The position numbers and the translations under genes are program-made. A stretch of 64,000 bases of DNA from an uncultured Acidobacteriaceae bacterium (GTDB lineage Bacteria; Acidobacteriota; Terriglobia; Terriglobales; Acidobacteriaceae). The stretch lies in contig CAWGOX010000010.1 of assembly GCA_963824315.1 (NCBI GenBank), positions 50,308-114,307 on the forward strand, given 5' to 3'. A model generated the notes under the pieces. It ran no database searches. It was not told where the DNA came from and saw nothing but the letters and a program-made list of their open reading frames with translations. The number at the start of each line of letters is the position of its first letter. Position 1 is the stretch's first letter. Below are positions 21,452 through 36,108 of this stretch, one piece after another.

Positions 21452-22141
21452 ATGGCAACTACAGTACATGAACCGCCCAAGATCGACTCCAGCCGTTTGC
21501 CTGATGCTCAGCGTTCGGATCGAATTACGGATAATGGCGGTTGGCGAAATCTGGTTCCGGCGGGAGGAGACGTCCGGACCGCGTTCAAATATTCTCCGCC
21601 GCCATCCGCTACCGGCATCTGGGTCGTGATTTTTGCGATCACGATGATGTTCGCGGCGTTCACGAGCGCGTTGTTTGTGCGCAAGGGATCGTCTCTAGAC
21701 TGGCAGGGCTTTACGTTGCCGCCGATCCTCTATTTCAACACCCTGCTGCTTGTTGCCAGCGGAGTCACGTTGGAAATCGCGCGTCGTCGCGTGGCTACAT
21801 TCATGGGCGGTGTGAGGAGTCAGTTGGAAAGTCCTGCGCGATGGTTGTACATCACTTTGGCGCTAGGCCTACTCTTCGTGGCCGGACAGTATGTCGCCTG
21901 GTCTCAGTTGAGAGCCCGCGGACTCTATCTGGCAACGAATCCCAGCAGTTCATTTTTCTATGTACTGACTGTTACTCACGTCCTGCACGTTTTAGGTGGA
22001 CTCGGCGGACTGCTGTATGTGATCCGCAAGCTGAGTAAGTCGAACCTGCGAAGAAGCCAACTCGACGCGACGGCTCGCTACTGGCATTTTATGGGTGGGC
22101 TTTGGATTTACCTGCTCTTGCTGTTATGGGTGAAGCTTTAG
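21452..22141 (+). CDS. coxC: heme-copper oxidase subunit III family protein (copy 1)
   Basis: Multi-transmembrane protein with FFYVLTVTHVLHVLGG and ARYWHFMGGLWIYL, which are subunit III signatures. Confidence 0.85.
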   Translation: MATTVHEPPKIDSSRLPDAQRSDRITDNGGWRNLVPAGGDVRTAFKYSPPPSATGIWVVIFAITMMFAAFTSALFVRKGSSLDWQGFTLPPILYFNTLLLVASGVTLEIARRRVATFMGGVRSQLESPARWLYITLALGLLFVAGQYVAWSQLRARGLYLATNPSSSFFYVLTVTHVLHVLGGLGGLLYVIRKLSKSNLRRSQLDATARYWHFMGGLWIYLLLLLWVKL

Positions 22142-22191
22142 CAGATTGAATATTTCGTGATGGATCGTTTGACTGAGTAACGGGAGGCGAT

Positions 22192-22812
22192 GTGAGCCAA
22201 GCGGATTTGACCATGGAAACGCACGGGACCGGACTGATGGTAGGTCCCGCGTTTTCTATTCCTACGAAAAAGCTGGCGATGTGGCTGTTCATCATCGCCG
22301 ACACGATGACATTCGCGGCGTGTCTCGTGGCTTACGGATTCGTGCGCAATGGCTCTCCGAATTGGCCACGGCCATTCCACAGCATCCTCAACGTGTCGCT
22401 GATGACTTTTATTCTGCTGACGAGCAGCTTAACGATGCTACTGGGAGTGCGGGCGGCGAGGTTGGGTGACAAAGCGGCCGCGTTCCGCTGGACGATGATT
22501 ACGGCGGCGGCGGGAATTCTATTCGCGTTGCTACATATCAGAGAATGGATGGGGCTGATCGACGAAGGCATGACGATGTTCAAGAATCCCTGGGGCACTG
22601 GACTCTTCGGCGCATCGTTCTTCACGGTTACTGGCTTGCACCTTACACACGTTACCGGCGGCATTATCGCGCTGATCGTTGTAGGGCTTCGCTACAGGGG
22701 TGGACGCTATAACGCGGACGATATCGAAATCCTCGGTCTGTACTGGCACTTCGTAGATCTGGTGTGGATGTTCGTTGTGCCGTTGGTCTACCTGTTGAAT
22801 CTTGCACACTAG
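22192..22812 (+). CDS. coxC: heme-copper oxidase subunit III family protein (copy 2)
   Basis: GTG start 4 nt after GGGAGG. Contains FFTVTGLHLTHVTGG and GLYWHFVDLVWMFV. Confidence 0.85.
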   Translation: MSQADLTMETHGTGLMVGPAFSIPTKKLAMWLFIIADTMTFAACLVAYGFVRNGSPNWPRPFHSILNVSLMTFILLTSSLTMLLGVRAARLGDKAAAFRWTMITAAAGILFALLHIREWMGLIDEGMTMFKNPWGTGLFGASFFTVTGLHLTHVTGGIIALIVVGLRYRGGRYNADDIEILGLYWHFVDLVWMFVVPLVYLLNLAH

Positions 22813-22847
22813 ATTGGAAGAGTTTGGAAAAGTCAGGAGCGAAGGCC

Positions 22848-23171
22848 ATGGCAACGACACAAGCGCAAAACGGGACCGCTGAGGGAATTGGAAAAATTCT
22901 CTTTATCTATATTTGTCTGTTGGTGTTGGCTGGTTTGCAATTTGTAATCGCCTACCAAAATATTGATACGTCGCAAATGTTGATGCGGATGATGACGGTT
23001 GCGATCATCGAAGCTGGATTGGCGGGCATGTTCTTCATGCACTTGTGGTCCGAAAAGCGCGGTTTTATGCTCTTTGTAGTGGTATTTACGGTTTTTGTTC
23101 TTCTAGCGATGCAATACGGATGGACCGATAGTTCGAGGATGGTGGTGGGAGCGCCGTTTTCAAAGTTATGA
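22848..23171 (+). CDS. coxD: prokaryotic cytochrome oxidase subunit IV-like small membrane protein
   Basis: ATG at 22848 lies 8 nt after AGGAG. Three transmembrane segments and a GMFFMHLW motif typical of the COX4_pro family. The track ORF start at 22764 overlaps coxC and lacks a ribosome-binding site. Confidence 0.65.
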   Translation: MATTQAQNGTAEGIGKILFIYICLLVLAGLQFVIAYQNIDTSQMLMRMMTVAIIEAGLAGMFFMHLWSEKRGFMLFVVVFTVFVLLAMQYGWTDSSRMVVGAPFSKL

Positions 23172-23452
23172 CGCCGCGAATCTACAAGCAGACGTTGTCG
23201 CAAATGCTGTTCCGAACTCGGTTAATGAAGGTTGTGCTCGCCGGGCTGACCCTCCTCGCTTCCTCGCTTCCAGCTTTCTCACAAGGTTGCGCGCTGTGCT
23301 ACACGTCAGCGGCTTCCTCGGGCAATCGAATGATTCAGGCACTGCAAAGTGGAATTCTGATTTTGATCGTCCCACCAACACTCATGTCTGTCTTGATGAT
23401 TTTTATCGTGTATCGGAAACGCAATCAGTTTCGTAACGACGATGCTTCGTAG
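23168..23452 (+). CDS. small secreted/membrane-anchored CxxC protein, function unknown
   Basis: ATGA overlap with the coxD stop codon. Signal-like MKVVLAGLTLLASSLPAFS-QG, then CALC, then one C-terminal transmembrane segment (ILILIVPPTLMSVLMIFIVY) followed by RKRNQ. Confidence 0.5.
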   Translation: MTPRIYKQTLSQMLFRTRLMKVVLAGLTLLASSLPAFSQGCALCYTSAASSGNRMIQALQSGILILIVPPTLMSVLMIFIVYRKRNQFRNDDAS

Positions 23453-23472
23453 ATGCTAGCGATGGGTAAAAT

Positions 23473-24861
23473 CTAAAAGAGTAACTTTCCACTATTTGAA
23501 TTCTGCTCGATGTATTTCTTGCTGTTGAATTTCTTTCCAGTGCTGGCGCCTGACATGTAGCGAATCAGCCCAAAGATAGGGCGATCAAACCAGGGCCGGT
23601 CGAATTTTCCTACGATTGACCACGCAATTCCCGCGTAGCCGTTGGGATCGCGGCCATCGAGTTCGTATTTATCATTGAGTTGTACAGCAATCTGATACGC
23701 CTGCGCTGCTGACGGGCTCCATTCCAGAATTTTTTTCGCCCAGTACATCCGCAGGTAGTTGTGCATCCAGCCAGTGTTCGTCATCTGACTTTGAGCCGCA
23801 TTCCAAAGTTCATCGTGAGTTTCGGCGTGCTCCAATTGCTGCTCGCTATAGAGAACGGGACGATCATCGTTCGCGTGCGCTGCCAAAGTACGATGGGCCC
23901 ACGGTTCTCCGCATTCAAAATTGTCGTAGTTAGGATTGAAGCGAACCAGGTTCACCGCCAGTTCCCGCCACGTAATGATTTGGTTTAGGAACGCCTCTTT
24001 GTCTTCTTTCGGAGCGTCGGCCTTTTCGACGGCCAGCGCAACCGTGATCGGACTGATATGTCCGAAGTGCAGATACGGCGAGAGGCGGCTGGTTCCGCTC
24101 AGCTCTGGTTTGTTGCGGAGGGTCGCGTAGGATTGCAATCCGTTCTTAAGAAAGTTATCCAATAATCGCAGAGCCTCTTTTGTGCCGCCGCGAAAGCCCG
24201 AGACTGGACCCACTGAAGTATCGAGCGGCCAATTCTGGGTGATATCAAATCCGGTATCAAGCGATTGAATTTCTGCGGGCTGATGCCATGCAACTTTCGC
24301 TTTCACGGTTGGGGATGCCACCAAAAAGCGCCCGAGCAACGCCTGCAATCGTGGTCGGATGATATGCGCTGCGTATTGTTCTTTCTGGAGTAGGTAGGAG
24401 GGCACGATAACGTCCGCGTCCACTGTCCACAAGGGCAGCACTAGCTTTGTTGCAGCCTTGCGCCGCCACGAGTCGAGCTCACGCATCGGATTCTCATCAC
24501 CGATCACGAGGGCAGCATTTACTTCTGTGCAGAATTTGATCAGGCTGTGTTCGGGGAACCGCCGCAGAATGAATCCGATGTTTCGCCGCTCTAGAGCTTC
24601 GGCGATGTCCGGAATGCCTTCGTTCAGGAAGCGATAGTGGCGCAGGTTGGCGTGGGGATAATAGGGGACGGGCGCGAAGAAAACGACCACTGGCTTTCCC
24701 AGTGCATTAGCGGCTTCGACCGCAACATCGAGCGCAGGATTATCCAAACCGCGCTGTGCCCGCTGCATCCAGTACACGACACAAGTGCCGTTGGGGGACG
24801 GAGGTCCTGAGCGCCGCACGGTCACGCGCGGATCGCTAGCCAGTCGACTTAGATCGTCCAA
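23473..24861 (-). CDS. phr: deoxyribodipyrimidine photolyase, class II CPD type
   Basis: VVYWMQRAQRGLDNPAL at the N-terminus. FAD-domain motifs SRLSPYLHFGHISP and WMHNYLRMYWAKKILEW, plus the C-terminal GLIRYMS. This pattern fits class II rather than class I photolyases. Confidence 0.9.
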   Translation of the reverse strand: MDDLSRLASDPRVTVRRSGPPSPNGTCVVYWMQRAQRGLDNPALDVAVEAANALGKPVVVFFAPVPYYPHANLRHYRFLNEGIPDIAEALERRNIGFILRRFPEHSLIKFCTEVNAALVIGDENPMRELDSWRRKAATKLVLPLWTVDADVIVPSYLLQKEQYAAHIIRPRLQALLGRFLVASPTVKAKVAWHQPAEIQSLDTGFDITQNWPLDTSVGPVSGFRGGTKEALRLLDNFLKNGLQSYATLRNKPELSGTSRLSPYLHFGHISPITVALAVEKADAPKEDKEAFLNQIITWRELAVNLVRFNPNYDNFECGEPWAHRTLAAHANDDRPVLYSEQQLEHAETHDELWNAAQSQMTNTGWMHNYLRMYWAKKILEWSPSAAQAYQIAVQLNDKYELDGRDPNGYAGIAWSIVGKFDRPWFDRPIFGLIRYMSGASTGKKFNSKKYIEQNSNSGKLLF

Positions 24862-24899
24862 TGAAAGCCATCCATTTGAAGTTCTTCAGGATATTCAGA

Positions 24900-25142
24900 T
24901 CACATCAACCAGGATGGCGCGACTTTCGATGCAGAGCCAATGACAATCTCGTCAAATTCGGCTCGGTTCATCTGAGTCAGGACTGCCTCAGCGTCGGTCG
25001 CTTCGCGTCTCACTCGTGCTGTTCGGAGCAGGTCGTTTAACAATCCCAAGCGACGGGTGAGATCAAGGATCAGCTCGATCCGTTGCTGGGTGGTCATTTC
25101 GCCCGCCAACTCAATTTGTGGAACTACCGGCTTTGCAAACAT
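24900..25142 (-). CDS. hypothetical protein (80 aa)
   Basis: An ORF that exactly fills the gap between the cfa-like gene and phr on the same strand. I recognise no motif. Confidence 0.35.
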   Translation of the reverse strand: MFAKPVVPQIELAGEMTTQQRIELILDLTRRLGLLNDLLRTARVRREATDAEAVLTQMNRAEFDEIVIGSASKVAPSWLM

Positions 25143-25312
25143 GAGTCACCCTTTCGCGAACACTTTTCAACTCATCCGATTTAACAGTAGATCAACCGCT
25201 CTTCACTAAGAATCAAATACTCAAAGGCTGTCGCTCTGGTTTGAATCACGCGACAATAAGTGGGGTGCCAATTGCTTTTGGAGAAAACACCTCCAGCGGC
25301 ATTCACCGCTCT

Positions 25313-26422
25313 TCAGTTGCGAAACACGTAGTGCGATACGAGCCATTCCTGGCCTCCGCGGTAACCCCATAGTTCCGCGCAAGCCATGAAAAAGACGCGC
25401 CAGTGGACGAACCAACGAAGAGTTTCTGCTTTCGCTTGTTTCAACGGAAGCCTTTTAGCATAGGTCTCAGCGAAAAGATCAAGTATCTCCGGGCGATTCG
25501 CGTCCATGTTGTTAAGCCAGGCTTCGGCAGTCTTTTGGTAGTGAGTACCGTTCACTTGCCAATGGTTTTGTAATCGCAAATCGCGCTGGAAATACAAGAG
25601 CAAATCGTCGCTCGGCATGATCCCGCCTGTAAAGAAATGGCGAGCCATCCAATCGCTTTCATCTTTAATGTCGAAGGGATAAGCAAACCGCGCATTCGTA
25701 AAAATGTGGACGAAGAGTTTGGCACCCGGTCGCATCCATGAAGAAATACGCTGTAGCAACATTTCGTAATTCCGCATGTGTTCAAACATTTCGACTGAGA
25801 CCACGCGATCAAATTTCGCGGCCGCTTCGAAGTCGTTCATGTCTGCGGTGAGGACGGTCAGGTTATCGAGACATCGCGCCTTGGCTTGGGCATCGATGAA
25901 CCGCTTTTGGGAAGAAGAATTGGAAACGCTGACAATGGTGGATTGAGGAAAGCGTTCCGCCATCGACAGAGAGAGCGATCCCCATCCGCAGCCGAGTTCA
26001 AGCACTCGCTGACCGTTGGCCAATTCCGCGCGTTCCATGGTGAGAGAGAGCATCGCTGCTTCCGCTTGATCCAGGGTAGTGGTACCGTCCTGCCATAGTG
26101 CGGAGCTGTACTTCAGGTGCTTGCCAAGTGCTAATTCGAAAAAGCGTGCAGGGACTTCGTAGTGCTGAGCGTTCGCAGCCGCAGTTTCAATCGCGATTGG
26201 CCCGTTCTTTAACTCCTGAATGAATTGCATCAAATGGGACTGCTGCATTTCCGGTGAGGCTTTGGTCTCGTCCCGCAAACGTTGACGCAGCAGACGTCGT
26301 ATGCCGGCGCGGATCAGCAAATCGGGAACCAAGTCGCGCTCGAGTAAAGCGAGGTCCCATGAACTTTCTCCCGCTCGAGAATGCGCCGATGTGGTCCGTG
26401 TCATCGTTTGTGTGTCGTTCAT
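25313..26422 (-). CDS. cyclopropane-fatty-acyl-phospholipid synthase family SAM-dependent methyltransferase
   Basis: [24 protein letters not shown], the SAM motif [11 protein letters not shown], and the FEHM and [12 protein letters not shown]-terminal signatures of the CFA synthase / mycolic acid methyltransferase family. Confidence 0.85.
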
Positions 26423-26461
26423 ATCGCAATGCCTTTCATGGCGATCATTGAAGAAGAGGGA

Positions 26462-27085
26462 TTACTTGTGGTCTTGGGTGAGCGCTGCGCTTAGACTCGC
26501 GGCCTTGGCTTCATCGAAGATGCCTTGCGATCTCCACAAGACGTCGCCATTCCGATTGACCAGAAATTCGTAGATCGTCTTTTGATCATCGATAAGAAGC
26601 GCTTCGCAAAACGGCTTCTTATCCAGATATAAAGTGATGGTGCGTTCGCGTGCATTGCGATCTGGTATGCCTCGCCGCATGCCGCTATCAATGAACCAGC
26701 GTGTGAGGGCCATCGGCCTCTCGATCGTGGGCAACTCGTAATATTGAAAGTTCAGACGACCCGAGCCTTGGTTCAGATTTTCGAATCGTTTCATTTCTCG
26801 GAGCCAGGTATCGACATCTTTTTGCTGCTCTCGCTCGAAGGCCACCAAGAGAAGATTGTTGTCGCCTTCGAAATCGGTGGGCAAATTGAAAGAACGTTTT
26901 TCGAGGTTGGATGCCGTTAGGGTGGGGAAGTGCCCCATCCGACGGCTCTCCGTCGATGCCACGGCCATGGTTCCTCCAAAATACAGCGTTAGCGTGAAAA
27001 TAATAGTCGTTATAACGACTATTATTGTGGTAGCCGCGACTTGTCTATCCTGCTTCCTTATGGTCGATAGCAGATGTTTGCTCAC
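26462..27085 (-). CDS. membrane-anchored hypothetical protein
   Basis: N-terminal transmembrane segment (ATTIIVVITTIIFTLTLYFGG). ATGA-type 4-nt overlap with the upstream DUF1295 gene. No recognised catalytic motif. Confidence 0.5.
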   Translation of the reverse strand: MSKHLLSTIRKQDRQVAATTIIVVITTIIFTLTLYFGGTMAVASTESRRMGHFPTLTASNLEKRSFNLPTDFEGDNNLLLVAFEREQQKDVDTWLREMKRFENLNQGSGRLNFQYYELPTIERPMALTRWFIDSGMRRGIPDRNARERTITLYLDKKPFCEALLIDDQKTIYEFLVNRNGDVLWRSQGIFDEAKAASLSAALTQDHK

Positions 27086-27873
27086 GCTGCTGACTTCCTA
27101 AACCATGGGACAAAGGCGCTCGTGGTCTGCTGATAGCGACGGTAGGCATCGCCCTTGCTGCGTAGCGCCTGCGCTTCGGTCGCGGGAATTCCAGTCACAC
27201 GAAAGAGGAAATAGAACATCAGCAACGGGCAGATGATGGCGAGCCATCCATAAGGAGAGGCAATGGCAAAAACTGCCCATGCCAGCCACACCAGCCACTC
27301 GAAGAAATAGTTTGGGTGCCGCGAATACTTCCAGAGTCCGCGTTGACAGACTTGTCCATTGGACGACGGATCGCGCTTGAAAGCTGCGAGTTGTGCATCG
27401 GCGATCGCTTCGCCAGCGATTGCTACCAACCAAATCGCGACGCCCACGTATTCAAGTGGCGACATCGTCGGCGCGGGATTCAGCGCAGCCATCAGGAAGG
27501 GAAGCGAGAGTACCACGTCGAGCAGTCCCTGGAATTCGAAGAACAGTAAGAACTTGAGTGGGAGGTTCGTCTTCCACTGTCGGCGCAGTTCCTGATAGCG
27601 GCCTTCTTCGGGTTCACCGACAATGCGCACCAGCAAATGAATACCGAGGCGGATTCCCCAAACCGCAGCCATCCCTGCCATCAACCATTTGCGCGCTACG
27701 AAGCCGGAACCGAGCACTGCATAGGTGACGGCTAATAGCGGTACGCCGAATGCCCATCCGGGATCAACGACGCTGGCGTTGTTAGTCCGCAGATGAACGA
27801 GCCATAGCACGAACATCATCGCCAGTACGAGCGCAGCGCCTGGCAGAACGAGATGGAGAACGGAATGGAGCAT
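27082..27873 (-). CDS. DUF1295 family membrane protein (steroid 5-alpha-reductase / ICMT-like fold)
   Basis: Polytopic membrane protein with the C-terminal RGLWKYSRHPNYFFEWLVWLAWA motif characteristic of DUF1295. Confidence 0.8.
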   Translation of the reverse strand: MLHSVLHLVLPGAALVLAMMFVLWLVHLRTNNASVVDPGWAFGVPLLAVTYAVLGSGFVARKWLMAGMAAVWGIRLGIHLLVRIVGEPEEGRYQELRRQWKTNLPLKFLLFFEFQGLLDVVLSLPFLMAALNPAPTMSPLEYVGVAIWLVAIAGEAIADAQLAAFKRDPSSNGQVCQRGLWKYSRHPNYFFEWLVWLAWAVFAIASPYGWLAIICPLLMFYFLFRVTGIPATEAQALRSKGDAYRRYQQTTSAFVPWFRKSAA

Positions 27874-27920
27874 CTAAAACCCAAGAATGCACTAGCGTAG
27901 CGGTATCAATGTCACAAACT

Positions 27921-28262
27921 CTAACGCCCGACTTTCAGAACTAGATCAGAAAGTGGCTCTTCCGATCTCAACTTAAAAAGTTGGAGGAGCACGTAACCTG
28001 ACATCGCGATATTTCCCAACGACATGATCAGGACAAACCAAACTACTTTTGCGAGCAGTCCGCGTTCTTTAAAACAGACCCAGACAAAAAATGTAAGAAA
28101 TCCAAAGTAGGCATCAAACAATGTCGCGACTGCCCAAGGGCTATCGCTCCAGCTAAATTCCGATCCGGCCAGCCGCAGGGGCTTGTGCAGGCTGACGTAG
28201 GAAGTCATGACAATCATCCAAATGAAAATGGCACCGAAGATGATTTTCAAAAATAGCCGCAT
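27921..28262 (-). CDS. small integral membrane protein, DUF1475-like
   Basis: Four predicted transmembrane segments. PWAVATLFDAYFGFLTFFVWV resembles DUF1475. The family name is from memory. Confidence 0.55.
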   Translation of the reverse strand: MRLFLKIIFGAIFIWMIVMTSYVSLHKPLRLAGSEFSWSDSPWAVATLFDAYFGFLTFFVWVCFKERGLLAKVVWFVLIMSLGNIAMSGYVLLQLFKLRSEEPLSDLVLKVGR

Positions 28263-28350
28263 AAGTTCTCAGTCCCTATTCCGAATCAAGTACGGGGATA
28301 CCCACTAATAAGTACGTCCGTGAGCGAGCTGCGGATTGTTCCCGGAAACG

Positions 28351-29271
28351 CTAAAACCTGGCGCCCAGCGCCGACAACTGTTGTTCTAGAGCGACAAAAT
28401 CGTTCAGCACCAGCCAGCGAGATCCCGCAGTAGCGCGCTCCAGTCCAAGCGCAGGCGGGCCACCCAGCCACAGCGCGGTGGATCGTTGGGCCTTGCGGGC
28501 AATAAAGTTCAACTCCTGCAAAAGGTCGGGACCGGGAACACTACTGAGGCTCAGCAGCACCACATCCGCGTCACTTTTTCGTGACGCCCACACGATGTCC
28601 GCGGCGGGCAAGTCGGATCCCAAATAAATCACGCCAAGGCCGCCGACCGCGGTCAGCATGGCAGCGGCAAGATTGGCGAATCCGTGGCGCTCATTTCGGG
28701 GCGTCGCTAACAACACACGAGCCGGTGGATTGGTTGGCGAATACGTTCGGACCATCGAAGCGAGCAGCGCGCTGAGCAGGTTGGTCAACATGTGCTCCTG
28801 AGCAATACTGCATTTCCCGGCGTGCCAGCGTTCGCCGATGATCCGCATCAGAGGCAGTGCTGCTTCATGCACAAAGTCTCTAGGACTGGCCATCGCAGTG
28901 GCCAGACGGTTGATTTCGCGATCCGTGGCGGCGTAATCGAAGCGTTCAATCTCACGCAGGATGGGCAGTAGCAAATCCTGCGACGCCGCCTCTTTCCGGA
29001 TCGTTTTCTTGTTCTTGGCGGCGAGAGAATCACCCGCATCGAGAAGCTCGCGCAATTGTCCATCTTTAATCGCAGCGACCTGTCCGATTGCGTGCCCTTG
29101 TTCGACCACCTGCCGCAGAAGAATCAGTCGCTTAATTTGCTCCGCGGAATACACACGTCCGCGCGCAGAACGTGAGGGTACAACCGCGCTGTAACGACGC
29201 TCCCAAGCCCGAAGCGTGTCGAGGGGAATGCCCGTCAGTTTGGCAGCAGCGCTGATGGGATACGAGGACAT
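28351..29271 (-). CDS. carH: MerR-family, B12-binding light-responsive transcriptional regulator (CarH/LitR type)
   Basis: N-terminal MerR helix-turn-helix (YPISAAAKLTGIPLDTLRAWERRY). A four-helix-bundle Wx9EH motif, RWHAGKCSIAQEH, at 28792-28827. A Rossmann B12 domain, VLLATPRNERHGFANLAAAML ... YLGSDLP ... LGG, that parallels Thermus CarH. The start is chosen at ATG 29271; the track uses TTG 29298. Confidence 0.85.
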   Translation of the reverse strand: MSSYPISAAAKLTGIPLDTLRAWERRYSAVVPSRSARGRVYSAEQIKRLILLRQVVEQGHAIGQVAAIKDGQLRELLDAGDSLAAKNKKTIRKEAASQDLLLPILREIERFDYAATDREINRLATAMASPRDFVHEAALPLMRIIGERWHAGKCSIAQEHMLTNLLSALLASMVRTYSPTNPPARVLLATPRNERHGFANLAAAMLTAVGGLGVIYLGSDLPAADIVWASRKSDADVVLLSLSSVPGPDLLQELNFIARKAQRSTALWLGGPPALGLERATAGSRWLVLNDFVALEQQLSALGARF

Positions 29272-29292
29272 TCGATGGGTGGATCGTAACAC

Positions 29293-29340
29293 TGACAAGT
29301 ATAGCTGTCAATGAATTGTCATGGACAAATGATTGACAAT
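29293..29340. promoter_or_regulatory. candidate CarH/LitR operator and divergent promoter region
   Basis: Clustered TGACA/TGTCA half-sites: TGACA 29293, TGTCA 29306, TGTCA 29317, GACAA 29324, and TTGACA 29333-29338. Spacing is about 10-13 bp, and two short palindromes are present (TGACA-N8-TGTCA and TTGTCATGGACAA). The site lies between carH and the desaturase operon. Confidence 0.3.
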
Positions 29341-29418
29341 ACCTAGGGCGAGATGTACAAGAAGATGAAGGCAATCCGCAGCTAGCCCTGGAAACGTACC
29401 TGATACGAAGGGCTCAAA

Positions 29419-30264
29419 GTGCCCCACCTCAAGGAACTTTCTGTGATCGAGCGCTTGAACCACTACAGTTTCGGGACGGTCATACCGTTCGTGCTACTGC
29501 ACGCGGGATGCGTAGCGTTATTTTTCATACCCTTTCGTTGGTCGTACGTTTGGCTGATGCTGGCTTTATATGCGGTCCGGATGTTTGGCATCACGGCTGG
29601 ATACCACCGCTATTTCAGTCATCGCACCTACAAAATGGCCCGAGCATGGCAATTCCTGATGGCGTTCCTGGCTGAGACGTCGGGACAAAAGGGTGTTCTG
29701 TGGTGGGCGGCTCATCATCGCGTTCATCATCAGCACGCGGACAAGGAACGCGACATTCATTCACCAGGGCTACGCGGATTCTGGTGGGCTCATGTTGGGT
29801 GGGTGCTGTCCAACGACTATGACGGATACGATCCGGCGCTGATCAAAGACTTCAGCAAATTTCCTGAACTGCGCTGGCTTGACAAGCATTACCTAGTGCC
29901 CCCCGCAGTGCTTGGCGGATTGCTGCTGGTGGTTGGTGGGACGGGGGCTTTTGTTTGGGGATTTGTTGCATCGACTGTTCTGTTGTTCCACGGGACGTTT
30001 GCGATCAATTCGCTGGCGCATCTTTGGGGGTCGCGACGGTTTGATACTCCGGACGATAGCCGCAACAATTTCGTGCTTGCCATCGTGACGCTGGGTGAGG
30101 GGTGGCACAACAATCACCATAAGTTCATGTATGCATGTCAGCAGGGGATTCGTTGGTGGGAAGTGGATTTCACCTTTTACGCGCTGAAGGTCTTGAGTTG
30201 GTTGGGAGTTACGCGAGACCTGCGTGGCATCCGCCTGCCGATTTCAGAGGGTAATGCGCGATGA
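29419..30264 (+). CDS. acyl-CoA/acyl-lipid delta-9-type fatty acid desaturase
   Basis: Three histidine boxes (HRYFSH, HHRVHH, HNNHH) and the transmembrane topology typical of membrane desaturases. GTG start. Confidence 0.9.
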   Translation: MPHLKELSVIERLNHYSFGTVIPFVLLHAGCVALFFIPFRWSYVWLMLALYAVRMFGITAGYHRYFSHRTYKMARAWQFLMAFLAETSGQKGVLWWAAHHRVHHQHADKERDIHSPGLRGFWWAHVGWVLSNDYDGYDPALIKDFSKFPELRWLDKHYLVPPAVLGGLLLVVGGTGAFVWGFVASTVLLFHGTFAINSLAHLWGSRRFDTPDDSRNNFVLAIVTLGEGWHNNHHKFMYACQQGIRWWEVDFTFYALKVLSWLGVTRDLRGIRLPISEGNAR

Positions 30265-31529
30265 GTCGGATCGCGGTGATTGGTGCGGGCATTTCGGGTA
30301 TGGCTGCTGCTTACCTTCTTAGTGAGAAGCACGAGGTAAGTTTGTTCGAGAAGGAAGATCGCCTGGGTGGCCACACTCACACGCACACGATCGAAACCAG
30401 TTGCGGACCGCTGCCAATCGATACGGGATTTATTGTCCACAACGATCGAACATATCCGAATCTGGTGCGGCTATTCAGTCGCATGGGATTGAAGCGACAA
30501 AAGAGCGATATGTCATTTGGAGTCTCCTGCCGTCGCACGGGATTTGAATACAGCAGTCGCGGATTGCGAGGACTTTTTGCCGGCGGAAACTGGCATCGTC
30601 CTGGGCATTACAAATTTCTCTCGGAGATTGTGCGATTCAACCGGGAGGCGCGTCGCTTACTAGCGGATCCCGCTAGAGCAGATATCACCTTGCGCGACTA
30701 TTTGCGTTCTCATCAATTTGGCGGAGAGTTTTCCCGCTACTATCTGCATCCCATGGCGGCGGCGGTTTGGTCTATGTCGCTCGAAGAAATTGAAGAGTTT
30801 CCCGCCTTGACGTTAATTCGCTTTTTCGACAATCACGGTTTCCTTGGATTAACGACGCAGGCGCAGTGGTACGTGTTGCAAGGTGGTAGCAGCACGTACA
30901 TTCCGCCGATGACGGCTCCTTATAGGGAGAGGATTCGGCTCGGTGCAAAGATTGGTTCGGTGACTCGGACTGCATCAGCAGTGCAAATTGAATTCACTGA
31001 TCGAGCGCCTGAGAAGTTCGATCAAGTGGTCTTCGCGTGTCACGCTCCTCAAACGATGCAGTTGCTGCGAGATGCAACGCCGGCTGAGACCCAAGTTTTG
31101 GGAAGCTTTCGAACAAGTCGTAACGAAACGGTGCTTCATACGGACTCCCGGTTGTTGCCCACACAACCAGAAGCTCGCGCGTCGTGGAATTACCACCTCG
31201 GGATTGAGCGTCGGGCGGCCACTCTGACGTATCACATGAACCGTCTGCAGGGATTGCCGACGAAGGAGGACTATTGCGTCACCCTGAATGACACCGCGTC
31301 AATCGATTCGCGGTGCGTTCTGCGCGAGATGACCTACTTTCATCCTCTATATACATTGGACGCGATTCGCGCTCAGGCGCGCTGGTCGGAGATTAGCGGC
31401 CGCCATCGGGCGCACTTCTGCGGCGCTTACTGGGCTTACGGATTCCACGAAGATGGGCTGAATTCGGCGATCCGCGTTGCAGAGACTCTCGGCGTTCGTT
31501 GGGCTGTTGGCTCGGAGGCGGCGGCGTGA
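30261..31529 (+). CDS. NAD(P)/FAD-dependent oxidoreductase, amine-oxidase / phytoene-desaturase-like
   Basis: The N-terminal dinucleotide fold IAVIGAGISGMAAAYLL ... VSLFEKEDRLGGHT and the C-terminal FCGAYWAYGFHEDG motif of this family. 4-nt overlap with the desaturase gene. Confidence 0.85.
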   Translation: MSRIAVIGAGISGMAAAYLLSEKHEVSLFEKEDRLGGHTHTHTIETSCGPLPIDTGFIVHNDRTYPNLVRLFSRMGLKRQKSDMSFGVSCRRTGFEYSSRGLRGLFAGGNWHRPGHYKFLSEIVRFNREARRLLADPARADITLRDYLRSHQFGGEFSRYYLHPMAAAVWSMSLEEIEEFPALTLIRFFDNHGFLGLTTQAQWYVLQGGSSTYIPPMTAPYRERIRLGAKIGSVTRTASAVQIEFTDRAPEKFDQVVFACHAPQTMQLLRDATPAETQVLGSFRTSRNETVLHTDSRLLPTQPEARASWNYHLGIERRAATLTYHMNRLQGLPTKEDYCVTLNDTASIDSRCVLREMTYFHPLYTLDAIRAQARWSEISGRHRAHFCGAYWAYGFHEDGLNSAIRVAETLGVRWAVGSEAAA

Positions 31530-32326
31530 TGGAGTCGGGAATCTATTCCGGAACATTGCGCCATCGGCGCTTCAGCCCGGCAGTGCACGAGTTTACCTAT
31601 CCCTTGTTCATGGTGTTTCTCGATATTGAACGGATGCCTGAGTTGATGGATGTGTCTCCGATTGCCGGGTATAACCGGCGCAACCTTGTTTCGTATCAGG
31701 AGCGCGATCACTTCGGAGATCCCGCGAAGAAGCTGCGGGACAGGATGTCGATCGAGGCGCAACGAAAAGGAATTGCAATCCCAGAGGGACGAATTTTCCT
31801 GCTCACGCATCTTCGCTACCTCGGATACAACTTCAATCCCGTTTCTTTTTTCTACTGCTACGACCGGAAAGACCGGCTGCAAACAATTATGGCTGAAGTG
31901 AACAATACGTTTGGAGAGACGCAAAACTACTGGCTCACACCGGCTGTTGAACTTCCAGCGGGGCTGAACAAGAAATATCGATTTCCAAAGACATTCCATG
32001 TGTCGCCGTTTATGAAGCTGGGACACGAATATGAATGGACGTTCACGCCTCCGGGCGAGGGACTGGTGACGGAATGTATCAGTCATGAAGATGGGAAAGT
32101 CATTTTCGATTCGACGTTGAAGATGGAACGGAGTGAGTGGTCGCGAGCCTCGCTGCATCGGGCGATTGTGCGGTTTCCGTGGATGACGGCGAAGGTGATT
32201 GCCGCCATTCATTGGCAGGCTCTGCGACTGTTGATAAAGCGCGTTCCTGTGGCACCACATCCGGGTGCGGGACATTTTGAACCGGCAACAGCGCGACATT
32301 TGGGGGCGTCATGGCGAGCGGAGTAA
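31529..32326 (+). CDS. DUF1365 family protein
   Basis: ATG overlaps the upstream TGA (TGATG). The N-terminus SGIYSGTLRHRRFSPAVHEFTYPLFMVFLDI is the characteristic DUF1365 start. This family is usually found next to cfa-like genes. Confidence 0.8.
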   Translation: MESGIYSGTLRHRRFSPAVHEFTYPLFMVFLDIERMPELMDVSPIAGYNRRNLVSYQERDHFGDPAKKLRDRMSIEAQRKGIAIPEGRIFLLTHLRYLGYNFNPVSFFYCYDRKDRLQTIMAEVNNTFGETQNYWLTPAVELPAGLNKKYRFPKTFHVSPFMKLGHEYEWTFTPPGEGLVTECISHEDGKVIFDSTLKMERSEWSRASLHRAIVRFPWMTAKVIAAIHWQALRLLIKRVPVAPHPGAGHFEPATARHLGASWRAE

Positions 32327-33660
32327 GTACGAATACCTCTGACAGTATGGTTCACTCACAGAATATTGTTCATAAGATCGCGAGGGCGATATTTCTGAAG
32401 ACGTTGTCTGGTCTTAGGGACGGGAGTCTGGAGTTAGTTTGTCGCGAGGGCACGTATCACTTCGGAGATCGTCATCAGGGCGATCGTCGTCAGAACGGCG
32501 AAAACGAAGAACTTCACGCCGTGGTCGCGGTGAACAACGAACGCTTTTTCCTGCGGGCGCTGCTAGCCGGAGATGTTGGTGTAGGCGAGGCCTACATGGA
32601 TGGCGATTGGTCCACACCGGATCTGGTGGCCGTAGTACGTTTGGCGGTGCGAAATCTTGAACAGCTTGACGGCAGCAATCGACTCTTTACGGCGTTTCGA
32701 AGGGCTGCGGATTTAATCTCTCACCGCAGCAATCGCAACACGCAGTCTGGAAGCCGCCGCAACATTTCTTATCATTACGATCTAGGCAACGATTTTTATC
32801 GTCTCTTCCTTGATCGCAATCTGGCGTATTCATGCGCTTATTACGAAAGATCAGATGATTCGCTAGAGCAGGCGCAAATCAACAAGTTCGATCGTATCTG
32901 CCGGAAGCTTGAGTTGAACTCTCAAGATCACGTTCTGGAAATTGGGACTGGCTGGGGTGGATTCGCAGCATATGCCGCGGAGACTTACGGATGCCGTATC
33001 ACCACCACCACCATCAGTCGAGAGCAGCACGAGTACGCACGAGAAATGTTTGCGCGGATTCCGGCGGGCGGAAGAATCGAATTGCTGCTCGAAGATTATC
33101 GAAATCTAAAGGGGCAATACGACAAGATTGTCAGTATCGAAATGTTCGAGGCGGTCGGCTATGAACATTACGATGATTATTTCGGAGCCTGCAATCGTCT
33201 GCTTAAGCCGCAGGGCGCTATGTTGCTGCAGACCATTACGATTCTGGAGTCGAAGTTCCAGCAGTATCGCAAGCAAAGCGATTGGATCAAGAAATACATC
33301 TTTCCTGGCGCTGAGCTGGCGTCAGTGACGGAGATTGAACGATCGCTAGTTCGCGCGACGGGGATGAAGTTATTTAATCTGGAAGATATCGGGATGCACT
33401 ACTCCTTGACGCTGCGCGAGTGGCGTCGCCGGTTTTTGGATCGGTTGCCGGAGGTGCGTGAGCAGGGTTTTGACGATCGCTTCGTCCGTATGTGGGACTA
33501 CTATCTCGCCTATTGCGAAGGCGCGTTTCGCGAGGGATACATCGGCGACGTGCAACTGGTACTCACAAAAGTAGCAAACCCGAAGCCGCTGTTTGGCGAT
33601 AGAAATATCGACGGCGGGACGGCGCACGCTGAACGGGGCGGAGCGTTGGCGAGAGTGTAG
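32311..33660 (+). CDS. cfa: cyclopropane-fatty-acyl-phospholipid synthase family SAM-dependent methyltransferase
   Basis: ISYHYDLGNDFYRLFLDRNLAYSCAYY, VLEIGTGWGGFA, IEMFEAVG and MWDYYLAYCEGAFREGYIGDVQ are canonical CFA synthase motifs. Confidence 0.9.
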   Translation: MASGVSTNTSDSMVHSQNIVHKIARAIFLKTLSGLRDGSLELVCREGTYHFGDRHQGDRRQNGENEELHAVVAVNNERFFLRALLAGDVGVGEAYMDGDWSTPDLVAVVRLAVRNLEQLDGSNRLFTAFRRAADLISHRSNRNTQSGSRRNISYHYDLGNDFYRLFLDRNLAYSCAYYERSDDSLEQAQINKFDRICRKLELNSQDHVLEIGTGWGGFAAYAAETYGCRITTTTISREQHEYAREMFARIPAGGRIELLLEDYRNLKGQYDKIVSIEMFEAVGYEHYDDYFGACNRLLKPQGAMLLQTITILESKFQQYRKQSDWIKKYIFPGAELASVTEIERSLVRATGMKLFNLEDIGMHYSLTLREWRRRFLDRLPEVREQGFDDRFVRMWDYYLAYCEGAFREGYIGDVQLVLTKVANPKPLFGDRNIDGGTAHAERGGALARV

Positions 33661-33814
33661 CGAACGTGCGAACATAGTTGAGAACAAGTTGAAAGACAGT
33701 GCGGACTGCCTGGGAAGACATCGACCGGGTAGTTTCAGAAATTGGGTTTCGCATCTCCGGCCCCGTAGGCGCGAGCCAACACAATTCTCACGAACCGTAT
33801 TTACTTTGGAGATC

Positions 33815-34351
33815 ATGAACATGAAGACTCTTGCACGATTCGCATTTTGCGTAGCTTTGTTGTCGCTCACTCCTCTCATGCTGTTCGCCGGTTCTGCGCC
33901 CGCGATCGGCAGCATGGCGCCGGAATTCACGCTCAATTCACAGGAAGGCTCTCCCATTAGCTTGAAAGACTATCGCGGCAAATGGGTGGTGCTCTATTTT
34001 TATCCAAAAGACTTCACCAGCGGCTGCACCATTGAAGCGCATAACTTTCAGCGCGATCTGGAGCAGTACAAACAGAAGAATGCCGTGATTCTTGGCGTTA
34101 GCGTTGATAGCGCGGATTCGCACAAGCAGTTTTGCACCAAGGAAGGCCTGAACTTCAAATTGCTGGCCGACACCGACCACAAGGTTTCGAGTGACTATGA
34201 CTCGCTCACCAACATGGGGCTGGTGAAGTTTGCGGCGCGTCACACGTTCATCATTAACCCCGACGGAAAAGTCGTGAAGGAATACATGGATGTGAATCCG
34301 AGCCAGCACAGTGCTGAAGTGTTGGCGGCGCTCGCAGACTTGCAGAAGTAA
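33815..34351 (+). CDS. bcp: secreted peroxiredoxin, Bcp/PrxQ type
   Basis: ATG at 33815 after GGAG. Signal peptide MNMKTLARFAFCVALLSLTPLMLFA. Active-site motif YFYPKDFTSGCTIEA. The track ORF start at 33593 would add 74 non-homologous residues. Confidence 0.85.
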   Translation: MNMKTLARFAFCVALLSLTPLMLFAGSAPAIGSMAPEFTLNSQEGSPISLKDYRGKWVVLYFYPKDFTSGCTIEAHNFQRDLEQYKQKNAVILGVSVDSADSHKQFCTKEGLNFKLLADTDHKVSSDYDSLTNMGLVKFAARHTFIINPDGKVVKEYMDVNPSQHSAEVLAALADLQK

Positions 34352-34375
34352 ATAGTGACAATGCAGGGGACGCCG

Positions 34376-34401
34376 TAGAGACGGGGCAAGCCCCGTCTCT
34401 A
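34376..34401 (+). terminator. Rho-independent-like terminator after bcp
   Basis: Perfect 11-bp stem TAGAGACGGGG / CCCCGTCTCTA with a 4-nt loop, followed by TTCGGCGATTT. Confidence 0.6.
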
Positions 34402-34444
34402 TTCGGCGATTTGTATAACAACTCCATCCCATGAACTCCATCCG

Positions 34445-35467
34445 ATGAAATACGACGCCATCCTTATTACATCGTTCGGTGGTCCTGAGCGTCCTGAGGA
34501 TGTCACGCCATTTTTGGAGAATGTGCTGCGCGGGAAGAATGTACCTCGCGAGCGCATGCTTGAAGTGGCGGAGCACTACTATCACTTCGGGGGCAAGAGC
34601 CCGATCAACGAACAGAATCGTCAACTGATTTTCGCGTTGAAAGACGAATTGGAGCAGCACGGGCCGCATCTTCCGATCTATTGGGGTAATCGCAACTGGC
34701 ATCCGATGCTCGCGGACACATTGCGGCAGATGAAGGATGACGGAATCCAGCGAGCCCTCGCTTTTGTAACCTCCGCCTACAGTTCCTATTCAAGTTGTCG
34801 GCAGTATCGCGAGGATATTGCGCGCGCACAGGCAGCGGTGGGAGTGGGCGCGCCGGTGGTCGATAAGATTCGCGCTTTTTATAATCATCCGGGATTTGTG
34901 GAGGCAGTCGTCGAGCAAGTGGGAGAAGCGCTGGTGCAGTTTCCGGAAGAGCGTCGCGAAAACGTACATCTCGTCTATACAGCCCACAGCATTCCGATGG
35001 GGATGGCGGAAAACTCCGATTACGAGAAGCAACTGCGAGAGACCGCGAAGCTCGTCGCGGAGAGCTTGGGCAAGAAAAATTGGCAGCTCGTCTATCAGAG
35101 CCGCAGTGGACCGCCATCGCAGCCTTGGCTGGAGCCGGACATTCTCGACCATTTGCGAGAAATCAAGAGTGGTGGAGCGACCGATGTAGTGATCGCCCCG
35201 ATTGGTTTTGTCTCCGATCATATGGAAATTCTGTTTGATCTGGACACACAGGCCCGCGATTTGTGCGCGGAATTGGGATTGAATATGGTCCGCGCGAAGA
35301 CGGTCGGGACTCATCCTCGATTCGTTACGATGATTCGCGAACTGATCTGCGAACGGATCGAAGAGAATCGAGCGCGGTTGGCTTTGGGAGTTCTCGGTCC
35401 TCGTCCTGACCTGTGCCCGGAGGATTGCTGTCCTGTGCCGAAGAGGCCGTCCAAGCCCACGATCTAG
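34445..35467 (+). CDS. hemH: ferrochelatase
   Basis: AILITSFGGPERPEDVTPFLENV, YTAHSIP and FVSDHMEILFDLD motifs. Confidence 0.9.
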   Translation: MKYDAILITSFGGPERPEDVTPFLENVLRGKNVPRERMLEVAEHYYHFGGKSPINEQNRQLIFALKDELEQHGPHLPIYWGNRNWHPMLADTLRQMKDDGIQRALAFVTSAYSSYSSCRQYREDIARAQAAVGVGAPVVDKIRAFYNHPGFVEAVVEQVGEALVQFPEERRENVHLVYTAHSIPMGMAENSDYEKQLRETAKLVAESLGKKNWQLVYQSRSGPPSQPWLEPDILDHLREIKSGGATDVVIAPIGFVSDHMEILFDLDTQARDLCAELGLNMVRAKTVGTHPRFVTMIRELICERIEENRARLALGVLGPRPDLCPEDCCPVPKRPSKPTI

Positions 35468-35655
35468 CGATGATTCCGGCCTCACCTCCCGATTAGAAAC
35501 CAAATGTCCTCGTTCAACCGGTATTCAATCGGTTGACGGACATTCACTTTAGTAACTGCCATCGCTTCGAAATCCGATAACTTGTCTCCAACTCATGGGT
35601 TATAAGAAGTAGGCCGGGCTCTGACACTTTGCCGGCCACAAGGTGAATACGATCC

Positions 35656-36108
35656 ATGAAGCTCAATCGAATTGCCGCATTGCTCGTTTTAATTCCGGCG
35701 TTGGCCTTGCTCTCGCGGGCAGATGATCCGGGCCACCATCCGGCGTACCTTCACGCCCTCACCGACTTGCGCCACGCGCGCGCTCATTTGGAGCGATTGT
35801 CTCCATCGGATCGCGTCGACAACGAAGAAGAACATGCGATTCGCGAAATTGACGCCGCAATCAATGAGATCAAACAAGCGGCGATTGATGACGGCAAGAA
35901 CTTGAACGACCACCCCAGCGTTGATGCTCACCTGGGACACAAAGGCCGCTACCACCGGGCGTTGGAGTTACTCGACAAAGCGCACCACGACATTTCAGAA
36001 CGAGAGGATGATGGGTTTGCGCACGGTCTGAAGCATCGTGCCCTGGAGCACATTGACGAAGCGCACCGCATTGTCGATCACCTGATCGTCCAGGCGGCGA
36101 ACGACTAA
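35656..36108 (+). CDS. secreted His/Asp-rich helical hypothetical protein
   Basis: Signal peptide MKLNRIAALLVLIPALALLSRA-DD, followed by repeated HxxALxxLxxA-type helical segments. I recognise no family. Confidence 0.5.
   Translation: MKLNRIAALLVLIPALALLSRADDPGHHPAYLHALTDLRHARAHLERLSPSDRVDNEEEHAIREIDAAINEIKQAAIDDGKNLNDHPSVDAHLGHKGRYHRALELLDKAHHDISEREDDGFAHGLKHRALEHIDEAHRIVDHLIVQAAND

Follow-up and report, generated by a model that had tools for sequence, protein, structure and literature searches.

Does an uncultured soil or peat acidobacterium carry a repressor that senses light through vitamin B12, and if so, which genes would it hold in check? The question is raised by a reverse-strand gene in a 64,000-nucleotide stretch of an Acidobacteriaceae genome (contig CAWGOX010000010.1, positions 50,308 to 114,307; hereafter the window, to which positions refer unless a contig is named). 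Its product is publicly labelled only 'MerR family transcriptional regulator', and the initial annotation had read it as a CarH-type coenzyme B12 photoreceptor. That identity was supported by the motifs of the protein, its predicted fold, the type of operator beside the gene and the presence of genes for supplying adenosylcobalamin (AdoCbl). With a probability of roughly 0.7, judged from sequence and a structural model, the window gene is an orthologue of CarH (class I LitR), an AdoCbl-dependent light repressor that would act on both promoters of a divergent gene pair.

By definition, a CarH homologue combines a MerR-type DNA-binding domain with a Wx9EH motif and, further on, a His-on B12 motif (PMC8156234, PMC9304148), and the CarH-like protein of the window presents these parts exactly or nearly so (Table 1). 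In a phmmer search of the Protein Data Bank (PDB), Thermus CarH ranked first (3WHP and 5C8D, E about 3e-23), with the query segment GERWHAGKCSIAQEH aligned on GEAWHRGEIGVAEEH and ATPRNERHGFANLAAAM aligned on TTPPGERHEIGAMLAAY. Residues W131, H132, E141 and H142 of the Thermus protein were thereby paired with W149, H150, E159 and H160, and E175, R176 and H177 with E194, R195 and H196, the last being the predicted cobalt ligand. The alignment with characterised CarH/LitR proteins that the initial annotation had proposed as a check thus gave Thermus CarH as the best match with the key residues in register, and motif mapping placed the exact Wx9EH where it had been reported, with the codon of W149 at 28825-28827 and that of H160 at 28792-28794. 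The likeness of the lower-ligand segment to Thermus CarH also held, although the Thermus string had been given with a wrong first letter (A for T). As for the proposed helix-turn-helix, the MerR_1 match was above its cut-off, and RxWERRY, the recognition-helix motif of CarH (PMC9304148), was present as R21-A-W-E-R-R-Y27 and invariant across the clade of close homologues described below.

The predicted structure pointed to the same family. An AlphaFold2 (AF2) model built on 47 clade sequences, with a predicted local distance difference test (pLDDT) score of 85.6, consisted of a winged helix, a disordered linker, a helical bundle (helices at residues 91-109, 113-126, 130-150 and 156-177) and a five-stranded beta-alpha domain; the linker of CarH has likewise been described as disordered (PMC8156234). 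When the model was compared with the PDB using Foldseek, the best 50 matches listed were all entries of Thermus thermophilus CarH (TtCarH), with E values down to 5e-16, and the TM-score to the TtCarH cobalamin-binding domain was 0.76-0.80 at a root-mean-square deviation of 3.0-3.5 Å. The residues of the oligomer interface could be traced as well: the R176-D201 salt bridge and G192 of the Thermus protein corresponded to R195, D220 and G211, conserved in 94%, 85% and 100% of the clade, respectively, and the second interface Gly (Thermus G160) fell in an alignment gap.

Two sets of sequences were compared with the protein: 121 close homologues that share 61-93% identity and come without exception from metagenome bins of Terriglobales, Acidobacteriaceae or Ca. 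Sulfotelmatobacter (the clade), and 136 distant representatives of 32-55% identity. Within the clade the Wx9EH motif was retained almost throughout (W in 116 sequences, H150 in 120, E159 and H160 in all 121), and W149, H150, E159, H160, E194, H196, S241 and G270-G271 were kept at 91-100%. Of 18 residues whose role in CarH is known, 17 were conserved at 90% or more, as compared with 43% of all columns, and 11 were invariant, as compared with 18% of all columns, a pattern which suggests that cofactor binding is still under selection. Spacing within the classic motif was exact (ExHx2[A]-x41-S241-x-S243-x26-G270G271). Two other family identities were considered and rejected: a CarA-type protein, since the Trp of Wx9EH is present and conserved, and a class II LitR, since the protein has a Rossmann domain in which the His ligand aligns, and the neighbours are a DUF1475 gene and a desaturase gene. 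Within the Wx9EH segment (W-H-x-G-K-C-S-I-A-Q-E-H) we also observed a Cys, C154 (28810-28812, reverse strand), shared by 107 of the 121 clade members and unusual among more distant CarH relatives, and in five clade members a Cys replaced the Trp of the motif itself.

The second line of evidence came from the DNA between the gene and the divergent operon headed by a desaturase gene. As start codon of carH, an upstream TTG at 29298 was rejected in favour of the ATG at 29271, which is favoured by the conserved N-terminus (M-x-x-S-Y-P-I, kept in 24 loci) and by the spacing to the -10 box; public gene calls of 316-339 amino acids for carH homologues probably start too far upstream. The intergenic region spans 147 bp, or more likely 171 bp, the desaturase probably starting at GTG 29443 rather than at the GTG 29419 of the open reading frame (ORF) list, given a conserved GTGATC after AAGGAA (an AGGAA-type ribosome-binding site). 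Published CarH operators are built from an 11-bp repeat, nAnnTnnACAn with the core TnnACA, which overlaps the -35 element and varies in arrangement from one operator to another (PMC9304148). The intergenic region contained such an array, TGTCAATGAATTGTCATGGACAAATGATTGACA, in which two tandem repeats on each strand meet head to head with a period of 11 bp; one of the four repeats reads A-nn-ACA, the others T-nn-ACA. A fifth half-site proposed earlier (TGACA, 29293-29297) was not conserved in other loci.

Both outer repeats coincided with -35 boxes, so that one bound oligomer would cover both boxes. The carH promoter, with its extended -10 element, ranked highest among the promoter-like sites there, with 10 of 12 positions matching in addition to the TG, and was conserved in related loci. 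The ATG follows the -10 box by 11 nt (29269-29288 in the window; 10-11 nt in related loci), so that the carH mRNA probably has little or no leader, with the transcription start placed from sequence. The opposite promoter was missed by the consensus scan and was read from the sequence; its type, TTGACAA-N16/17-TACAAC, was conserved in related loci. A search of Rfam over 22000-36000 with E up to 1 returned no RNA element, and RNAalifold predicted no pairs in the desaturase leader.

The operator was specific to this locus and followed the gene. Allowing at most two mismatches, its pattern occurred once in the window as compared with 0.02 expected, and in a position weight matrix (PWM) scan of the 4.75-Mb genome it was the sole match, with nothing else above 12 bits, so that the predicted direct regulon is the carH locus alone. 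The array was ungapped and conserved in 23 loci in which the flanks diverged, and it was present in all 25 carH-bearing loci examined, including two whose CarH is only 43-49% identical, which scored 40 and 57 bits. In contrast, three clusters without carH, from three genomes of the same order (L043, L044 and L045; G061:C90, G152:C4 and G004:C119), in which the whole desaturase/ufaD-ufaO-ufaM cluster lies in the same order beside DUF1475-DUF1295, gave best scores of only -12 to -17 bits. These clusters serve as natural 'deletion' controls, and the absence of the operator from them supports its assignment to CarH; the regulator seems to have been gained or lost as a cassette.

Several observations weigh against a CarH of the standard kind. 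The Pfam B12-binding model PF02310 scored 25.2 bits against a cut-off of 32.1, and the NCBIfam equivalog NF052513 ('HTH-type transcriptional repressor CarH') scored 95.4 bits against a cut-off of 400, although it was the best NCBIfam match; the protein, judged by its sequence, is a homologue outside that narrow equivalog. The classic motif of the Rossmann domain is E/DxHx2G-x41-SxV/T-x22-27-GG, with G/P written at the Gly position in PMC9304148, and in the supplementary alignment of that paper each of the four CarH/CarA reference proteins has Gly there (HExG). In the CarH-like protein the SxV/T position reads SxS (Ser243), the residue after the ligand His is Gly, and ExHxxG ends in Ala (ERHGFA). 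This last deviation had already been pointed out and is real, but the change is larger than was noted and extends across the clade: the Gly position is occupied by Pro in 119 of 121 clade sequences and by Ala in the remaining two (the window protein and P0002), as compared with Gly in 133 of 136 distant relatives, and the residue after the ligand His is Ala or Gly in the clade where 121 of the 136 distant relatives have Glu. A sequencing error does not account for the Ala, since it recurs in P0002, a metagenome homologue of 93% identity, and in P0123, a distant representative of 55% identity. On the DNA side, the two central operator repeats stand 8 bp apart on opposite strands, unlike the all-tandem operators of Thermus and Bacillus, and all four repeats may therefore not be filled simultaneously, which makes the stoichiometry on DNA uncertain. 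Because of the Gly replacement and the missed cut-offs, AdoCbl binding is treated here as a prediction. Two distant orthologues, 43% and 49% identical and belonging to the same bacterial family, keep the canonical GE(E/L)HEFG together with the same synteny and operator, which indicates that the clade descends from a standard CarH and has kept its target.

The same deviations would fit a repressor that works without B12, as CarA and class II LitR do: a constitutive oligomer on the same operator that is relieved by an antirepressor or a partner photoreceptor, with a vestigial B12 module. The replacement of a nearly invariant Gly with changed neighbours and the PF02310 score below cut-off are consistent with it, and there are precedents, given that CarA keeps the B12 motif yet is B12-independent (PMC8156234) and class II LitR works through light-oxygen-voltage (LOV) partners (PMC9758184). 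However, CarA has lost the Trp and the flanking residues of Wx9EH (PMC9304148) and class II LitR has lost the likeness to a Rossmann domain, whereas the window clade keeps the key residues at 91-100%, and PMC9304148 allows G/P at the Gly position. The LOV signature GxNCRFL was absent from every frame of the genome, no partner gene was conserved beside carH, and no CarS-type antirepressor or CarA paralogue was seen, the only other B12-binding_2 protein of the genome having no MerR domain. We therefore regard a B12-independent repressor as unlikely and retain the AdoCbl-dependent CarH as the preferred reading.

That other protein (357 amino acids; G000:C12:1742485-1743558, forward strand; L033:820-1893) combines a Wx9EH (WELNKITTAQEH) with a canonical ExHxxG (EMHRIG). 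The first 140 or so residues gave no Pfam match, and the PDB entries that matched best, 8J2W/8J2X (E 8e-22), are labelled 'cobalamin-binding proteins'. The genome may thus encode a further B12 photoreceptor.

The genes on either side suggest what the repressor controls. The divergent layout of carH and the desaturase operon was kept in 24 of 24 related loci, and the peroxiredoxin gene, the last conserved gene on the plus strand, was syntenic in most. The middle three genes of the operon have the order and domain content of ufaD-ufaO-ufaM of Rhodopseudomonas palustris (RPA2571-2569), a likeness of kind drawn from a comparison by description. UfaD and UfaO, a DUF1365 protein, have been described, and ufaD-ufaO-ufaM direct the synthesis of furan fatty acids, which build up under stress from singlet oxygen (PMC7380195); photolyase and genes of the ufaD-ufaO-ufaM type are induced by light or singlet oxygen in Rhodobacter and Pseudomonas (PMC7380195, PMC9758184). 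Downstream of carH, a same-strand set of genes reaches to a photolyase, and gene content on this side varied between related loci. Terminator-like sites were as frequent in the region as in shuffles (14 against 13.6 expected), none lay between carH and DUF1475, and the genes at 23473..28262 are possibly co-transcribed with carH. On this sequence evidence the predicted targets are the desaturase/ufa-like/peroxiredoxin operon, carH itself and, probably, the downstream genes up to the photolyase.

Table 1. Coordinates of the carH-like gene, its protein parts, the regulatory sites and the neighbouring genes in the window
Feature	Position	Strand	Evidence or remark
carH-like gene, 306 aa plus stop	28351..29271	-	Stop-free translation; start = ATG at 29271
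MerR DNA-binding part, residues 4-68	29068..29262	-	Pfam MerR_1, 49 bits, 4.9e-13, above cut-off
Flexible linker, residues 80-96	28984..29034	-	AF2 model pLDDT <50
Four-helix-bundle subdomain, residues 104-171	28759..28962	-	Pfam B12-binding_2 PF02607, 46 bits, 6e-12, above cut-off
Wx9EH motif: W149, H150 (= Thermus H132), E159, H160	28792..28827	-	phmmer alignment, motif mapping
Rossmann-type B12-binding subdomain, residues 183-306	28354..28725	-	phmmer to Thermus CarH; AF2 beta-alpha repeat
Lower-ligand segment E194-R195-H196-G197-F198-A199	28675..28692	-	Alignment; Ala199 in place of canonical Gly
Predicted CarH operator	29306..29338	.	TGTC-N7-TGTC-N3-GACA-N7-GACA, two tandem 11-bp repeats per strand, head to head
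carH promoter: -35 TTGACA 29306-29311, 17-nt spacer, extended -10 TG-n-TACGAT 29283-29288	29283..29311	-	
Lipid-operon promoter: -35 TTGACA 29333-29338, 17-nt spacer, -10 TACAAG 29356-29361	29333..29361	+	
ECF-sigma-like motif CAATCC-N17-CGTAC, lipid-operon leader	29372..29399	+	Conserved in leaders of the 22 loci listed; putative function
Second ECF-like copy (CAATCCGCAGCT...ACGTAC), between carH stop and DUF1475	28312..28338	-	Counterpart about 10 nt behind the stop codon of carH, 10 related loci
Membrane fatty-acid desaturase, first gene of divergent operon	29419..30264	+	Pfam FA_desaturase 1e-18
UfaD-like FAD/NAD-binding enzyme (amine-oxidase or phytoene-desaturase type)	30261..31529	+	Pfam Amino_oxidase, NAD_binding_8
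UfaO-like DUF1365 protein	31499..32326	+	Pfam DUF1365 6e-75
UfaM-like cyclopropane-fatty-acid (CFA)-synthase-family S-adenosylmethionine (SAM) methyltransferase	32311..33660	+	Pfam CMAS 4e-90
Secreted peroxiredoxin (AhpC/TSA), start approximate	33812..34351	+	Pfam AhpC-TSA 1e-41
DUF1475 gene	27921-28262	-	Pfam; downstream of carH
DUF1295 gene	27082-27873	-	Pfam; downstream of carH
Anchored 207-aa protein and 80-aa ORF	within 23473..28262	-	Downstream of carH
CFA-synthase-like methyltransferase, second CFA-like copy	25313-26422	-	Pfam; downstream of carH
Photolyase	23473-24861	-	Pfam; downstream end of same-strand set

Both the lipid-operon leader and the region behind carH contained a motif (CAATCC-N16/17-CGTA(C/A)) that resembles the RpoE/ChrR promoter consensus TGATCC-N16-CGTA (PMC5507510) and hence promoters that extracytoplasmic-function (ECF) sigma factors use; the 12-mer CAATCCGCAGCT is common to both copies. 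The main control by light or singlet oxygen could run through these promoters, with CarH minor or autoregulatory. In line with this, the motif recurred in the desaturase-operon leader of the 22 loci listed and after carH in 10 loci as well as in the window, and a related ATCC-N17-CGTAC was readable in the carH-less cluster L043, the one of the three whose intergenic region was inspected for it. However, the loose motif was near chance genome-wide (77 found, about 52 expected), and in the genome we found neither a copy before a sigma gene nor a ChrR-type anti-sigma factor, the best PF12973 match being a secreted cupin of 175 aa that has no sigma gene in its vicinity. Moreover, no ECF sigma gene lay beside carH in L017, the sole related locus inspected, unlike Streptomyces litR-litS. 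Such promoters would also be compatible with repression by CarH at the sigma-70-type promoters upstream of them, as an added layer more than a rival, and control led by an ECF sigma factor appears distinctly improbable. A bolder reading, which we hold to be doubtful, joins this motif to the altered B12 loop: the Terriglobales clade would have rebuilt the loop under the corrin ring, replacing a nearly invariant ExHEFG(I/L) by ExH(A/G)F(P/A)(T/N) and adding its own Cys within Wx9EH, such that the protein may no longer act as a standard AdoCbl photoreceptor (binding another cobamide, with altered His-on chemistry or with B12 dependence lost) and its input would be joined with that of an ECF-sigma-type, singlet-oxygen-like promoter in controlling furan-fatty-acid synthesis in abundant soil bacteria.

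An AdoCbl-dependent CarH presupposes a supply of its cofactor. The genome, which is 99% complete, contained a single cobalamin riboswitch (72.9 bits; G000:C15:580003-580222, reverse strand) directly upstream of a TonB-dependent receptor gene, a CobA/BtuR adenosyltransferase (222 bits; C15:485899-486417, reverse strand) and two enzymes of the methylmalonyl-CoA-mutase type, and neither CobS nor a PduO-type transferase was found in it. The gene content points to an organism that probably imports corrinoids, an auxotroph still running AdoCbl enzymes. It is this apparent auxotrophy (no CobS, riboswitch-controlled import) that raises the possibility of a sensor of cobalamin availability, which would repress while B12 is abundant and let go once it runs short, light being physiologically irrelevant, for example in dark peat. 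Repression would then follow the external corrinoid supply, and many carriers are metagenome-assembled genomes (MAGs) from bog, fen and soil. Against such a sensor, the targets are genes of photo-oxidative stress (photolyase and ufaD-ufaO-ufaM-like genes) and not of B12 metabolism. The Wx9EH cap and the His beside its Trp, which are tied to AdoCbl photochemistry, with Thermus H132 as the upper ligand after photolysis (PMC8156234), are both kept. The Co-C bond of AdoCbl is light-sensitive in CarH (PMC8156234), so any AdoCbl-bound form would be expected to respond to light. A pure availability sensor is thus very improbable.

Under the preferred reading of a light-responsive CarH, the AdoCbl-bound protein would oligomerise in the dark, probably as two head-to-tail dimers joined in a tetramer, and would occupy the symmetric four-repeat array, blocking both divergent promoters because the two outer repeats are their -35 boxes. 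One promoter would serve carH with read-through from DUF1475 to the photolyase, and the other the desaturase/ufa-like/peroxiredoxin operon. UV, blue or green light would break the Co-C bond, His150 could take the upper axial position, the oligomer would dissociate and both promoters would open, so that a light-exposed cell would produce photolyase, peroxiredoxin and membrane lipids with furan-type or other modifications. Since the cell apparently cannot make B12 and would import and adenosylate a corrinoid, both operons would be constitutively on without B12. That the protein binds AdoCbl, how it oligomerises, that it responds to light and represses, and what the target operon makes are all predicted here from sequence.

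Among the characterised systems, the closest is CarH of Thermus thermophilus (LitR, TTHB100; PDB 5C8A/5C8D/5C8E/5C8F), a class I LitR. It shares with the window protein the RxWERRY MerR domain, the disordered linker, the W-H-x8-E-H bundle, the E-R-H lower-ligand segment of the Rossmann domain, the R/D pair that forms the dimer salt bridge and the tetramer-interface Gly, and at the level of the locus 11-bp TnnACA repeats that include the -35 box, a host that is not phototrophic and a regulon for photoprotection. It differs in sequence (about 27% identity in the Foldseek alignments); in the window protein ExHxxG ends in Ala (Pro in the clade), Gly and not Glu follows the ligand His, and the G160 equivalent is missing. 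Its operator consists of three tandem repeats, whereas that of the window is a 2+2 head-to-head array, and its targets are carotenoid genes, whereas those of the window are lipid-modifying genes and a photolyase. The CarH proteins of Bacillus megaterium and myxobacteria (M. xanthus, Cystobacter, Sorangium, Haliangium) have AdoCbl-type motifs in common with the window protein, and their operators, of 2-5 repeats and variable design, in some cases span two divergent promoters as observed here (PMC9304148). M. xanthus also resembles our organism in being a B12 auxotroph with uptake (PMC8156234). These proteins regulate carotenogenesis, in contrast, and their reference sequences keep the Gly of ExHxxG.

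Two further systems resemble the locus in their targets. Class II LitR (PplR1-3 of Pseudomonas putida, PmlR2 of P. mendocina) belongs to the MerR family, and its regulon is very similar, with a photolyase, lipid genes of the ufaM type and genes of unassigned function that are induced by light (PMC9758184). However, it consists of the helical bundle only, is B12-independent and has adjacent short-LOV partners, whereas the window protein keeps the Rossmann domain and the His ligand. RpoE-ChrR of Rhodobacter sphaeroides (ufaM and the RSP1091-1087 ufaD-ufaO operon) shares the ufaD-, DUF1365/ufaO- and CFA-synthase/ufaM-like targets, the photolyase and a motif of the xxATCC-N16/17-CGTA type before target genes, but there a sigma/anti-sigma pair senses singlet oxygen, in place of the adjacent CarH-type repressor of the window locus.

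Neither type I nor type II reaction-centre proteins were found in the genome, so the presumption in the initial annotation that it is non-phototrophic holds, but not as a surprise. To our knowledge, all characterised CarH/LitR proteins come from non-phototrophs, the usual setting of CarH. The distribution of carH was patchy: among 201 sampled genomes of the order it occurred in six, each with the DUF1365 gene within 3 kb. A 183-bp carH fragment of 89% DNA identity at the very end of a contig labelled Alphaproteobacteria (L027:8000-8176) was rejected as evidence of transfer, being most likely a binning or assembly artefact.

Taken together, our analyses provide a sound annotation for a regulator known so far by a generic label, and leave the picture of the family unchanged, CarH homologues being already known to be widespread in non-phototrophs. 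For specialists, the points of interest are a fully symmetric four-repeat operator serving two promoters, carH-less clusters that act as natural controls, and a target that is lipid and not carotenoid; the clade-wide loss of the motif Gly offers a natural test of the weight of that residue in His-on binding. The locus points to a light- and B12-dependent photoprotection module of furan-type lipids, peroxiredoxin and photolyase in uncultured peat and soil Acidobacteria (Terriglobales/Ca. Sulfotelmatobacter), in which light, acting through CarH, probably induces membrane-lipid and DNA-repair defences, and which would couple the stress response to corrinoids from other organisms.

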